This document shows positions 51,937-62,702 of a stretch of DNA of 64,000 nt, in pieces. This stretch comes from a virus. Its lineage: Duplodnaviria > Caudoviricetes. The notes under the pieces were generated by a model. That model was not told the origin of the DNA, searched no databases, and saw only the letters and a program-made list of their open reading frames with translations. Position 1 is the stretch's first letter. Every line of letters begins with the position of its first letter. Made by a program: the position numbers and the translations under genes. Where the stretch lies: positions 26,749-90,748 of the IMG/VR virus record IMGVR_UViG_3300005512_000010; one strand, given 5' to 3'.

Positions 51937-52205
51937 AATAAATAGATATCTATATAAGCTATCAACAGATATTTATAAGCTTTTTGAAATTTACCTGGTG
52001 CATTTTTACCCTCTGGGACTCCAAAAAACACCAGGTGTGGTGTCTATAATCAGAGGCCCCCACCCCGGGGGGGTGTGTAAGTGTTCGGCCCCCTTGGCAC
52101 ACGTATGTGTGCCAGTGATCTCTTTGGGCCGTTATGTCACAGTGCCGGGCGAGCGCTATGATTTAACCACGCAGGCGAATTGGCCCTGCACTGACAATCT
52201 GAACC

Positions 52206-52379
52206 ATGACCATCCCCAACCGCTCCTGGAGAGACCGTCGCGACTGGCGCGACGGTGTGCGTCGCTTCACGCGCACGGTTCAAACCGTGGAGCAGGCTAA
52301 GTGGGAAGAACAGCAGGCCTGGGAGGCAGCCTATGAGGCTGCCGCCGAGGAGTACATGTTCGAACGTCACTACTGGTGA
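52206..52379 (+). CDS. Small hypothetical protein (57 aa)
   Basis: Hand-translated MTIPNRSWRD...; sits between a cassette promoter and a terminator. Confidence 0.6.
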   Translation: MTIPNRSWRDRRDWRDGVRRFTRTVQTVEQAKWEEQQAWEAAYEAAAEEYMFERHYW

Positions 52380-52387
52380 CGCGAGTG

Positions 52388-52414
52388 GGGAGGCGAAAGC
52401 CTCCCTTTCTTTTT
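52388..52414 (+). terminator. Intrinsic terminator (identical 35-bp copy at 54314-54348)
   Basis: GGGAGGC-GAAA-GCCTCCC followed by TTTCTTTTT. Confidence 0.85.
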
Positions 52415-52559
52415 GTCAACCCTCCCCGACCTAACGGCCCAACACCACACCTGCCTTCGGCATATACACCTATCTTTGGGCCGTTAGGTAGGGTGGTTAT
52501 CGGTGTTCGCTATACTATGGGCATGCGGGCGAGACGGTCCCGCGCCGACAACCTGACTC

Positions 52560-52742
52560 ATGATCAGCATTGAAACTCTCGACGGCAAGATTCTCCGCGA
52601 TCAGCGCGGAACTTTCATGTACGGACCCGACTGGGAGATTACTCCCAGTGATTCCGCCCCCATACGATTCGGGCTTGCCGAAATGGTAGCCTACTGGGAG
52701 GACTGCTGCCAGTTCGGCACTTACGTTCTCCGGATCAAGTAA
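52560..52742 (+). CDS. Small hypothetical protein
   Basis: Cassette-bounded 60-aa ORF. Confidence 0.6.
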   Translation: MISIETLDGKILRDQRGTFMYGPDWEITPSDSAPIRFGLAEMVAYWEDCCQFGTYVLRIK

Positions 52743-52917
52743 TACGGGGGGGGGTCCCCCCCCTTTTTTTTTGTCAATTCCCTTACCTAACGGCCCAAGC
52801 AGTCAGCAGAGCACACGTATGTGTGCCAGTGATCTCTTTGGGCCGTTATGTCACAAGGTCTCGAGCTCGCTAAGATATGGGCATGCGAGGCACAGAGCTT
52901 CGCCCACAATCCGAATC

Positions 52918-53133
52918 ATGAACCACTTCTCTCAAGCTGTAGTCGCGATGACAATGGGGATCGCCACCGGCTTCCTGGGCGTAGGAGCCCTGGCCAATGG
53001 CATCGATGCCATCGAGGCACGCAAGTGCCCCGGGGTCACCCGGATCCGGGTGAATCATGTCCCCCTTTTGAAAGACTGGGGGACTTACGGGGTCTGCCCC
53101 AGGGGCGGGCTGGTCACCCCGCTCAAGCCGTGA
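52918..53133 (+). CDS. Small membrane protein with C..C pair
   Basis: N-terminal TM helix; start follows the cassette leader. Confidence 0.6.
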   Translation: MNHFSQAVVAMTMGIATGFLGVGALANGIDAIEARKCPGVTRIRVNHVPLLKDWGTYGVCPRGGLVTPLKP

Positions 53134-53301
53134 CCGGGGGGGGCTCAGCCCCCCTTCTGTCAACCCCCTAAGCTAACGGCCCAAGCAGTCAGCAGAGCAC
53201 ACGTACGTGTGCCAGTGATCTCTTTGGGCCGCTATGTCACAAGGTCTCGGGCTCGCTATGATATGGGCATGCGGGGCACAGAGCTCCGCCACAACCTGAC
53301 C

Positions 53302-53526
53302 ATGTACGACACTTACTCTCAAGCAGCTCTCGATGCTGCCGATGATCTCGGCACTTACGCTCAATCAGTTCTCGATGCGGCGGACGACTTTGGCTTTCTC
53401 AGCCCGGGCGATGCCAGGAAGCTGGTTGCGGATCACCATGTAATGTGGGAGGCCTGGCTGGCTGAAAAGCCGATGGCCGCGCTGGCTTGCGAGGCTCGCC
53501 CACTCCTTCACTGGCTGGGTTACTGA
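53302..53526 (+). CDS. Small hypothetical protein (LSPGD...LHWLGY family)
   Basis: Internal 14-aa duplication; paralog at 60446. Confidence 0.65.
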   Translation: MYDTYSQAALDAADDLGTYAQSVLDAADDFGFLSPGDARKLVADHHVMWEAWLAEKPMAALACEARPLLHWLGY

Positions 53527-53589
53527 TCAAGACGGGGAGGGAAACCTCCCCCCCCCTTTACCTACATTACTTCACAACCTTTTCTCATC

Positions 53590-60465: not shown

Positions 60466-60643
60466 ATACCTCAAGTCGGTCCATAGCTTGGCAGATCCGG
60501 ATACGGGTCTGCTGAGCCCTGGAGACTCGATGAGGCTCCTGCAGGACAACGGGTCTTGTTGGGAGGACTACCTGGAGACTCCTGGGCCCTGGCCCAAAGG
60601 GTCGAGGAAGCCCAGGCACATCTTGGGACATCTTGGTTATTAA
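60446..60643 (+). CDS. Small hypothetical protein (LSPGD...LGY family)
   Basis: Paralog of 53302-53526. Confidence 0.65.
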   Translation: MQQPIIEYLKSVHSLADPDTGLLSPGDSMRLLQDNGSCWEDYLETPGPWPKGSRKPRHILGHLGY

Positions 60644-60855
60644 CAACCCTCGCTTCGCTCGGGAAAGCTAACGCCTTCCCTTGGGCCGTTACACGGAGCG
60701 AAGCTTCGTGGTCCGTTATATGAAGCGAGCGAAGCGAGCTGCTATATTATCCGTGTCGGGAGCACAGCCCGGCACCCGTCCTTTATTCTCCGTCCAAGAT
60801 GACTACTCTCCCTCTCCCTCAGGCCGCTGGAAACTACTACTTCCCTCACACAAAC

Positions 60856-60990
60856 ATGATTCATGCTGACTGGATCAACATCGCCCTCTGTGCCAGCCTC
60901 AGGGGCTGTGAGAACGTCCTAGACAGGCAGCGCTGGAACCGTGAGTACGACAGCTACATGTCCGTACTCAGTGGCAAGGTGACCCAATGA
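60856..60990 (+). CDS. Small hypothetical protein (44 aa)
   Basis: Follows a cassette leader; ATGA-coupled to the next ORF. Confidence 0.5.
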   Translation: MIHADWINIALCASLRGCENVLDRQRWNREYDSYMSVLSGKVTQ

Positions 60991-61058
60991 ACTTCACCAG
61001 TTTCGGGGCGATTGTATTCGCCCTTTCTTTCATCTTCTTCGCCCTCCTGCTACCATGA
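60987..61058 (+). CDS. 23-aa hydrophobic peptide
   Basis: MNFTSFGAIVFALSFIFFALLLP; ATGA overlaps at both ends. Confidence 0.5.
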   Translation: MNFTSFGAIVFALSFIFFALLLP

Positions 61059-61228
61059 CCAAGACAGTCCGGATCCAAGTTGAAACCTACGACGGTTGCA
61101 AGACCATCTGGTACGAGAAGTCTCGCCTCCGCAAACCCACCGAGTCGATTAGCAAGCGAGTCCAGGAGCAGCTTGCTGGGTTGAACATTAGGAGGATTGA
61201 GGTCAGCCTGTCTCCTGCAACGGTCTGA
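61055..61228 (+). CDS. Small hypothetical protein (57 aa)
   Basis: MTKTVRIQVETYDGCKTIWYEKS...; followed by a terminator. Confidence 0.55.
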   Translation: MTKTVRIQVETYDGCKTIWYEKSRLRKPTESISKRVQEQLAGLNIRRIEVSLSPATV

Positions 61229-61349
61229 CAACGACTAAAACCGGGGGCCGCAAGGCCCCTTGGGCCGTTAGGTCATGTGGCCCGGAAGCCTGCTACATTA
61301 TTCATGTCGGGAGCACACCCCGGCACCCGTCCTTTACTCTCTGTCCATC

Positions 61350-61709
61350 ATGAACGATTCTATTATCGCCGCTGCAGACAAGCTTCGGGTCGAGCTCGAG
61401 AGGCTCGAAATTCAGCAGGACTCTGTAGCCGAGGCCAAGGCTAACCTGCTCGCCCTGATGACCTCAGCCGGCCCTGAGTGCCCCAATACACTCAAGGTGG
61501 AGTGGGGCCAGATCCAGCGGGTCACTAAGGTCGAGTGGGAATACCGTGATCGCGGTGTTACCGAGCAAAACAAGATAGTGGCTGGCCACAAGAAGACCCT
61601 GAGCGCTGCTCAGAAGCTGCTTAAAGGGTTGGAGGACGCTGCTAAGGCGGCAGGCAAGGCCAAGAAGGTGGCAGAGACCACGACGCTTAGGGTGGTCAAA
61701 GGGAAGTAA
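61350..61709 (+). CDS. Coiled-coil hypothetical protein
   Basis: Cassette-bounded 119-aa ORF. Confidence 0.6.
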   Translation: MNDSIIAAADKLRVELERLEIQQDSVAEAKANLLALMTSAGPECPNTLKVEWGQIQRVTKVEWEYRDRGVTEQNKIVAGHKKTLSAAQKLLKGLEDAAKAAGKAKKVAETTTLRVVKGK

Positions 61710-61840
61710 GCTCTACCTACGGGGACCTTCGGCTCGCGCAAGCGAGCCCTTGGTCCGTTAGGTCATGTGGCCCGGAAGCCTGCTACATTACCGGTGTCGG
61801 GAGCAAAGCCCGGCACTCAACCCTCTACTCTCTGTCCACC

Positions 61841-62674
61841 ATGAAACTCCCCGCTTCCCTCCGTAATCTTAGGAAAGAATACGGATTCACGTCTAGTAAC
61901 CTATATACTACCACGAATCCTAAGACCTTGAAGAACGGCAAAGTCAGTGAGTCTCCCACAATCGTATTCCATCTCGAACCTATTACCTTCGGTGTTTGCC
62001 CTGCCGCAGGATCTTGCGCCGCCTTGTGCCTGAATAAGGCGGGTAATCAGTTGTACATGAAAAACAAACTGAGTCGAAGGCAGAAACGGTCTCATGCCTT
62101 TCAATTCCGCCGCTCACACTTCCTCCAGCTCATGGTACTCGAAGCTGCAAGGCAGTGGAGCAAGGGATATAGAGGGGTGAGGCTTAATGGGACTAGCGAT
62201 AATGCCTGGGAGAAAGAGAAGGTAACAGTAACCCCCGAGCTCTCTCGCTTCGTCCATCTTTCCTTCGGTGTGTATCTTCCTGCCCAGGAATACACAATGA
62301 TCAGCGCCATGGTGATGATGGGCCTACAGCCCTATGATTACACTAAGAGGATTGATAGGGACTTTGATAAGGCGAGGCATCTCGGCTACCATCTCACCCT
62401 GTCCTGGGGAGGCAAGCATGATGATTGCATCTTTGATGTGGCTGAGCGCTACGGTCTGAACGTTGCCGCTCCGGTGTATGGGGTGAAGAAGTCTAAGCCG
62501 GTCCCTGATACCATCAAGGCGCCTAACGGCGAAGAATATGAAACAATTGACGGTGATGTGACCGATTGGAGGAGAGATGATGGCTGGACGGGCCGGAGTC
62601 GCATCGTAGCGCTGAGATTGAAGCGTACCCCGGGGCAGACTGAGAGGCTAGCGAAGGCGTTCTGTATTGCTTAA
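61841..62674 (+). CDS. GP88-like protein (Cys-motif, radical-SAM-like family)
   Basis: VCPAAGSCAALCLNKAG, VRLNGTSD, YDYTK, YHLTLSW, DGDVTDWR.DD. Confidence 0.7.
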   Translation: MKLPASLRNLRKEYGFTSSNLYTTTNPKTLKNGKVSESPTIVFHLEPITFGVCPAAGSCAALCLNKAGNQLYMKNKLSRRQKRSHAFQFRRSHFLQLMVLEAARQWSKGYRGVRLNGTSDNAWEKEKVTVTPELSRFVHLSFGVYLPAQEYTMISAMVMMGLQPYDYTKRIDRDFDKARHLGYHLTLSWGGKHDDCIFDVAERYGLNVAAPVYGVKKSKPVPDTIKAPNGEEYETIDGDVTDWRRDDGWTGRSRIVALRLKRTPGQTERLAKAFCIA

Positions 62675-62702
62675 GGAGTAGTAGTTCTCCCTCCTCCCCG
62701 GG

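Follow-up and report, generated by a model that had tools for sequence, protein, structure and literature searches.

Why should an array of small phage genes carry nearly the same control region in front of one gene after another? We addressed this question in the final 64 kb (64,000 nucleotides, hereafter the window) of the 90,748-bp IMG/VR contig IMGVR_UViG_3300005512_000010 (estimated completeness approximately 56%), which appears to derive from an uncultured myovirus. The virus is related to cyanophage S-TIM5 and belongs to a lineage outside the T4-like phages. Positions 52084–62700 of the window contain 19 promoter units (U1 to U19) with 23 genes, all on the plus strand, at a coding density of 0.71. 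An initial annotation, made from the sequence alone, had described a modular array of about 20 small genes with recurring near-identical blocks and had read it as an integrase-free platform for shuffling host-takeover and anti-defence genes. The modular array was confirmed, and the architecture that had been outlined (GC-rich stem-loop, box, -10, 5' hairpin and leader) was found in all 19 units. We consider it probable (roughly 70%) that the array is a hyperplastic, probably early-expressed accessory region of self-contained units, whose near-identical control modules act as portable homology by which cassettes are shuffled.

The units share an 11-bp box, TTGGKCCGTTA, present in one or two copies per unit. 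An exact search of the contig for TTGGNCCGTTA gave 29 copies, all of them between window positions 52124 and 63102 and none in the other 79 kb, and a reversed control pattern of the box had no matches in the contig. Three unit types were distinguished, which are grouped in blocks along the array. Units of the U1–U7 type have a reverse box, a spacer and a forward box that ends 22–24 nt before the -10. Units of the U8–U15 type have a forward box, an interval of 26–31 nt and a reverse box that ends 11 nt before a TGn-extended -10, and units of the U16–U19 type combine a forward box with a TACATT-type -10. The distance between box and -10 is rigid throughout the family of related arrays described below, with the forward box ending 21–25 nt upstream of the -10 in 42 of 54 cases and the reverse box core ending 12 nt upstream in 33 of 56. 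A scan of 596 Gb of prokaryote genomes with the box pair yielded three matches, in unrelated organisms and at about chance expectation, and the box pair appears not to be a cellular motif. Neither S-TIM5 nor the freshwater Synechococcus siphovirus S-LBS1 contains the box, scans of IMG/VR with both arrangements of the pair returned only the window's own record, and an Rfam search gave no credible family.

Most likely, a single DNA-binding protein recognises the box and would control the whole regulon through it. Its centre lies near -41 in the first geometry, the usual position for an activator, and it overlaps the -35 region in the second, as is usual for a repressor. A second motif of 9 nt, GTTGAAAGC, has 21 copies in the contig and none in the array. 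Its usual place is 25–35 nt upstream of the start codon of a structural or replication gene. Contigs of relatives identified by their large terminase (TerL) conserve this motif, and it is probably a middle or late promoter of the lineage. The array thus looks like a regulon separate from the rest of the genome.

Before each promoter, in the interval between units, lies a GC-rich stem-loop whose loop is of GNRA or UUCG type; most of these stem-loops are putative terminators. The 5' hairpin starts 6–9 nt past the -10 in 19 of 19 units, at approximately +3 of the predicted transcript, and its folding z-scores are negative in every unit (-0.3 to -3.9). Among 90 units of the family, the position of this hairpin is constant while its stem sequence varies, which suggests selection on structure. 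One related array (L090, approximately 1070–6170 on the gene-sense strand) has forward-box units with short leaders of 23–29 nt and no 5' hairpin, so the hairpin is not obligatory in the family.

The recurring blocks noted in the initial annotation are all real and mostly longer than first stated, and we identified one additional pair. The modules are 50–120 bp long and nearly identical, so that homologous recombination between them could move whole cassettes. Several units in the window are themselves mosaics. The U11 promoter resembles U10 in its left half and U14 in its right half, changing over within the reverse box, and in U16 a left half of U5 type is joined to a right half of the third type at the forward box. 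U14 is composite: its positions 58198–58311 copy 56652–56765 (96.5% identity), that is, the U11 promoter and the first 11 codons of the U11 gene, and its positions 58306–58344 (39 nt) copy the 3' end of the U4 gene (53482–53520). The resulting gene, 58274–58879, has an N-terminal extension that is absent in relatives.

To characterise the variation between related phages, we scanned metagenomes with the box pair. This recovered 22 contigs, of which 17 are true arrays with many boxes and a GC content of 57–64%, and these have the same box and layout as the window. The other five (L085, L088, L091, L093 and L102) have low GC content and a single box pair each and were treated as chance matches. 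One contig from another sample (L095) is 98.5% identical to window positions 57936–62839, which independently confirms 4.9 kb of the window's gene order. In another (L096), ThyX is followed by small minus-strand open reading frames (ORFs) and then by the array, the same genomic site as in the window.

With the window genes numbered 1–23 in order, the shared genes run 3, 8, 4, 10 in L096; 4, 10, 7, 11, 18, 16, 15, 22, 23 in L100; 8, 4, 10, 7, 11 in both L106 and L101; 18, 16, 15 in L089; 15, 16 in L105; 13, 10 in L103; 8, 6 in L098; 12, 9 in L087; and 8, 9, 12 in L099. The majority of cassettes in each related contig have no counterpart in the window. Gene order therefore varies among the relatives and is not invariant, invariance being the outcome that the initial annotation had named as refuting. 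Single-cassette differences were found as well. L106 and L101 are 92–95% identical overall and differ by one clean cassette replacement: they are 100% identical over the terminator, the reverse box, the spacer and the forward box plus 22 nt, diverge at the -10, continue into unrelated genes, and align again in the next terminator. L096 has one promoter-plus-gene unit more than L104, with the junction somewhere within the promoter. Together with the chimeric promoters within the window, the variable order and the single-cassette differences support the earlier suggestion that the repeats supply homology for cassette exchange.

We propose that the units are insulated expression slots that would be read by host RNA polymerase from a host-type -10. 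This reading draws on that hexamer and its fixed spacing to the box, on the confinement of the box to this region, and on comparison with S-TIM5 and other large phages. The GC-rich stem-loop would end or attenuate the transcript from the upstream unit. A single protein acting at the box, whether lone or in an inverted pair and at two fixed distances from the -10, would switch the whole set. The stem-loop at approximately +3 may shield transcripts from 5'-end-dependent RNases, the protection of bacterial mRNA by 5' stem-loops being established, and would be followed by the leader and by one to three small genes. General homologous recombination between modules would then delete, duplicate, replace or reorder single cassettes and leave genes and regulation intact.

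Several observations weigh against this proposal. A U-tract is present at only approximately four of the GC-rich stem-loops of the array. The array promoters have no canonical -35, so that promoter function rests on the -10, its position and its repetition; a generic sigma-70 scan of the array gave 6 sites against 3.7 expected. All of the relatives are short metagenome contigs, in which chimeric assembly across repeats is possible, and L106 and L101 are the sole pair close enough for a crossover to be placed precisely. At the family cut-off, 20 of the 23 array genes had no Pfam match, and these have no assignable function. The ends of homology blocks are enriched in control modules and at gene edges (29 of 49, with 33% expected; p = 2e-4), which speaks for the proposal. 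This statistic is crude and drawn from contigs that are not mutually independent, however, and breakpoints at gene boundaries are also expected from selection after random recombination.

This last point leads to the alternative that survives best, in which the repeats are purely regulatory and kept alike solely by selection for their promoter and terminator roles, and cassettes turn over through illegitimate recombination (moron accretion) followed by selection. In this view the modules would not serve as substrates for recombination. Functional constraint is evident on the box, the -10 and the hairpin, 20 of the 49 homology-block ends lie within coding sequence, and the chimeric gene at 58274 has a junction within coding sequence with little or no homology, so illegitimate events do occur. 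Constraint accounts less well for the spacers, which have no obvious function and yet are 94–96% identical between non-adjacent units while differing between sub-families; this suggests recent copying or gene conversion. The clean switches of U11 and U16 in a shared box, and the identity of L106 and L101 across a variable spacer up to a divergence placed exactly at the -10, argue in the same direction. We give selection with illegitimate turnover a modest chance of being the better account.

A less probable reading is that the box pairs act mainly as RNA, in which case read-through transcripts would form a long hairpin that is processed by RNase III or acts as an additional terminator. In U8–U15 a stem-loop without a U-tract is directly followed by the forward box, which makes read-through plausible, the two box arms of 11–12 nt are complementary, and in U6 and U7 a G/T variant is altered on both arms together. 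However, the arms are conserved by sequence and not through compensatory change, the variant position is mismatched between the arms of U10, U11 and U13, and five units have a single box. The fixed distance from box to -10 points instead to a role at the DNA level, and we consider the RNA reading improbable.

The location of the mosaic switch points in the box could also be explained by a site-specific, integron-like system, in which the box or the inverted box pair would be an attC-like site for a dedicated recombinase. The box pairs of U2–U7 form an inverted repeat whose inner ends, on a reading of the sequence, fit loose integron core patterns, and the contig does encode a tyrosine recombinase (284 aa, contig positions 1307–2161), so the term integrase-free is not supported as it was worded. 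This gene lies outside the window, approximately 75 kb from the array, and is 80% identical to the integrase of S-LBS1. Against NCBIfam it gave weak XerD-like matches only and none to an integron-integrase model, and no TIM5-like isolate is among the phage records that match it. It appears to be an ordinary phage-type integrase, and nothing connects it with the array. In half of the units the box pair is arranged the other way round or only one box is present. The cassettes also differ from those of integrons in having a promoter each, and the L106/L101 crossover falls approximately 22 nt downstream of the box and not inside it. We therefore regard a box-specific recombinase as very improbable. 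The same very low odds apply to the idea that one dedicated phage protein both switches the early regulon and directs cassette exchange to the 11-bp box, which would amount to site-directed, integron-like gene capture in a lytic cyanophage lineage. A further candidate, the leading region of a conjugative plasmid with CUP or single-stranded DNA promoter repeats, was dropped, as the terminase, baseplate and tube genes indicate a myovirus.

The cargo proteins of the array are 23–305 aa long. The product of 59035–59952 was identified as ArdC, as initially annotated, with Pfam matches to ArdcN (N-terminal ssDNA-binding domain, E = 9.6e-19) and MPTase-PolyVal (C-terminal zincin metalloprotease domain, E = 3.5e-35). 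The other Pfam assignments, Kyano_Gp96 for 56728–57051 and GP88 for 61841–62674, are to families without a known function, and for those of the other 20 genes that were compared with PHROG there was no informative match. The initial description of the cargo as host-takeover and anti-defence genes was thus not substantiated beyond ArdC, the only gene with a recognisable function. From the position of the array and the presence of ArdC, such a cargo is a reasonable guess. ArdC homologues in other viral contigs are 50–63% identical; the contigs that carry them belong to unrelated phages, and the box was not found in them. Three of these phages (L018, L021 and L026, 61–63% GC) have a conserved A/C-rich leader, CAACAACCACC, directly upstream of 6–8 consecutive small genes and often following a hairpin. 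They appear to represent another repeated-leader array around ArdC.

The array also stands out in composition, with a GC content at third codon positions of 0.68 in its coding sequences, compared with 0.49 in core genes, and at least 0.59 in each of the 23 genes. This GC-rich island could reflect either early genes tuned to the codon usage of a high-GC host or cassettes drawn from a pool shared with high-GC phages. Leaders without a ribosome-binding site do not set the array apart, as Shine-Dalgarno sequences are missing from genes across the whole window, which fits a cyanobacterial host.

Two paralogous small ORFs on the minus strand (50245–50623) adjoin the array in both the window and L096, and the first of them has GTTGAAAGC upstream. 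By inference only, we put this pair forward as a candidate for the box-binding regulator. A small-ORF AlphaFold model has an extended N-terminus and two helices (pLDDT 71), and Foldseek returned only weak matches (E of approximately 1) to TCP-domain and NikR chains. The pair has no Pfam match, the ribbon-helix-helix-like ORF has no sequence match in PDB, and its homologues form one cluster only. The ribbon-helix-helix character of the pair is tentative. A stretch of 41.6% GC between these ORFs and the array (50620–51936, minus strand) encodes a 438-aa protein without a Pfam match. This gene is missing from the same site in L096 and is therefore probably an insertion. IMG/VR searches for relatives of this gene and of the GP88 gene gave none that were useful.

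On the other side of the array, positions 62703–63765 consist of non-coding tandem repeats with units of 60, 56 and 139 bp around an AT-centred palindrome. They include five box copies (63053, 63092, 63249, 63388 and 63755) without obvious genes, and the near-identical contig L095 terminates within them. The repeats might serve as an origin, in packaging or in protein loading.

The assignment of the contig to a myovirus is supported by the contractile-tailed phage proteins encoded in the window (terminase, baseplate, tube and lysozyme). Ribonucleotide reductase, ThyX and a MoxR/DUF2201 pair are also encoded there. The nearest isolates are TIM5-like cyanophages, with TerL 56% identical to that of S-TIM5, and synteny with S-TIM5 (156–172 kb) runs through MoxR, DUF2201 and ThyX into a series of small plus-strand genes. 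Neither the box nor ArdC was found in the TerL relatives in IMG/VR (68–96% identity). Two of these contigs stop at the DUF2201 gene, 4–5 kb before the expected start of the array, consistent with assembly breaks near repeats. A megablast search of the array against plasmids and phages gave no match. The host is likely a high-GC freshwater or estuarine picocyanobacterium; the S-LBS1-like integrase suggests Synechococcus from fresh or estuarine water as the host, and perhaps a temperate option. The coordinates of the units, repeats and other features are collected below.

Table. Control modules, genes, repeats and neighbouring features of the array, in window coordinates (position 1 is the first nucleotide of the window).
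Feature	Position (strand)	Description
U1	52097–52379 (+)	palindrome; forward box 52124; -10 52157; gene 52206–52379 (57 aa)
U2	52432–52742 (+)	reverse box 52432; forward box 52476; -10 52511; gene 52560–52742 (60 aa)
U-tract terminator after U2 gene	52746–52763	
U3	52788–53133 (+)	reverse box 52788; forward box 52838; -10 52871; gene 52918–53133 (71 aa)
U4	53174–53778 (+)	reverse box 53174; forward box 53224; -10 53257; genes 53302–53526 (74 aa), 53590–53778 (62 aa)
U5	53823–54307 (+)	reverse box 53823; forward box 53873; -10 53906; gene 53951–54307 (118 aa)
U6	54359–54762 (+)	reverse box 54359; forward box 54408; -10 54443; gene 54493–54762 (89 aa)
U7	54804–55281 (+)	reverse box 54804; forward box 54853; -10 54886; gene 54937–55281 (114 aa); then two tandem stem-loops
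U8 (second geometry)	55364–55732 (+)	forward box 55364; reverse box 55401, 11 nt before -10 55423; gene 55475–55732 (85 aa)
U9	55759–56156 (+)	forward box 55759; reverse box 55801; -10 55823; gene 55875–56156 (93 aa), paralogue of 60118–60465
U10	56181–56546 (+)	forward box 56181; reverse box 56219; -10 56241; gene 56292–56546 (84 aa)
U11	56616–57051 (+)	forward box 56616; reverse box 56654; -10 56676; gene 56728–57051 (107 aa, Pfam Kyano_Gp96); mosaic promoter
U12	57079–57520 (+)	single forward box 57079; -10 57111; gene 57167–57520 (117 aa)
U13	57559–58103 (+)	forward box variant 57559; reverse box 57596; -10 57618; gene 57675–58103 (142 aa)
U14	58158–58879 (+)	forward box 58158; reverse box 58200; -10 58222; chimeric gene 58274–58879 (201 aa)
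U15	58920–59952 (+)	forward box 58920; reverse box 58962; -10 58984; ArdC-like gene 59035–59952 (305 aa)
U16 (third type)	60001–60643 (+)	left half U5-like; forward box 60028; -10 TACATT 60062; genes 60118–60465, 60446–60643 (second gene a paralogue of 53302–53526)
U17	60681–61228 (+)	two direct forward boxes 60681, 60708; -10 60744; genes 60799–60990, 60987–61058, 61055–61228
U18	61260–61709 (+)	forward box 61260; -10 61294; gene 61350–61709 (119 aa)
U19	61750–62674 (+)	forward box 61750; -10 61784; gene 61841–62674 (277 aa, Pfam GP88)
Repeat pair	52788/53174	119 bp, 93% identity
Repeat copy	53823	47 bp shared with 52788/53174, approximately 90% identity
Repeat pair	56181/56616	54 bp, 94% identity
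Repeat pair	55733/58894	99 bp, 95% identity
Repeat pair	60028/61260	101 bp, 94% identity
Repeat pair (additional)	55759/58158	110 bp, 96% identity
Two paralogous small ORFs	50245–50623 (-)	51 and 56 aa; ribbon-helix-helix-like pattern
GTTGAAAGC examples	12954, 13511, 21897, 33004, 41296 (+); 50658, 12953 (-)	

If our reading is correct, module-mediated cassette shuffling, known from T4-like coliphages and vibriophages, extends to a rare but widespread cyanophage lineage, and the evidence for it comes from natural populations (17 arrays with differing orders). The regulon is clean and testable, with one box, two geometries and approximately 19 promoters set against a separate 9-nt motif elsewhere, which would make the early-to-late switch of S-TIM5-like phages accessible. 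The approximately 60 or more orphan genes pooled with ArdC are a reasonable source for new counter-defence or host-takeover functions, and the modules of promoter, 5' hairpin and leader could serve as expression parts for picocyanobacteria.

Comparable arrangements are known in other systems. Large lytic phages such as SPO1 and T5 have host-takeover or early modules in which small early genes are clustered and every gene has a terminator and a strong promoter of its own; these phages are not known to use long near-identical modules as points of exchange. Integrons resemble the array in having ordered single-gene cassettes of variable content with inverted-repeat elements between them. They differ from it in that the array has no adjacent IntI-type gene, its cassettes have their own -10 and leader, and its crossovers are not at one fixed site, and an integron-like reading is unlikely.

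One paper on TIM5-like phages mentions neither a promoter motif nor a variable region. In S-TIM5 itself (NC_019516.2), the region at approximately 161.6–172.3 kb occupies the same position after MoxR, DUF2201 and ThyX and holds small plus-strand genes that include an annotated anti-restriction protein. It has its own promoter motif in at least 6 copies (164.8–170.9 kb), composed of a GC-rich element, a -35-like hexamer and a -10. In contrast to the array, its genes are mostly in operons, the sequence of its motif is not that of the box, and its start codons lie nearly at the predicted transcript start, with no 5' hairpin. Several promoter copies in S-TIM5 have a start codon only 6–9 nt after the -10, which suggests that its early mRNAs may be leaderless or nearly so. 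The presence of a separate promoter element at the equivalent place suggests that sub-lineages use their own promoter vocabularies for this region.

The closest parallel is with the promoter-early stem-loops (PeSLs) of T4-type phages, modules of a stem-loop and an early promoter found in hyperplastic regions with cassette insertions and deletions and with mini-circles that arise during infection, and described in RB49/phi1, T4/PST and KVP40/nt-1 (PMC2839356, PMC4122927). The array belongs to an S-TIM5-related and not a T4-like phage, and its modules have no AT-rich upstream region, TTGACA-type -35 or Shine-Dalgarno sequence. Instead, they contain an exclusive 11-bp box that is GC-rich, keeps to two rigid geometries and frequently forms an inverted pair, together with a conserved hairpin at the 5' end of the predicted transcript. 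There is nearly one gene per unit, and the array is a GC-rich compositional island. The comparison drawn in the initial annotation is nevertheless apt, as both systems combine stem-loop and -10 modules with small orphan genes and module-bounded cassette differences. Both have composite modules of approximately 100 bp that join a stem-loop to a host-type promoter and are packed closely into a hyperplastic region whose genes are small and mostly orphans; there, the cassettes would be transcriptionally insulated. In both, close relatives differ by module-bounded insertion, deletion or replacement, for which no dedicated recombinase would be needed.

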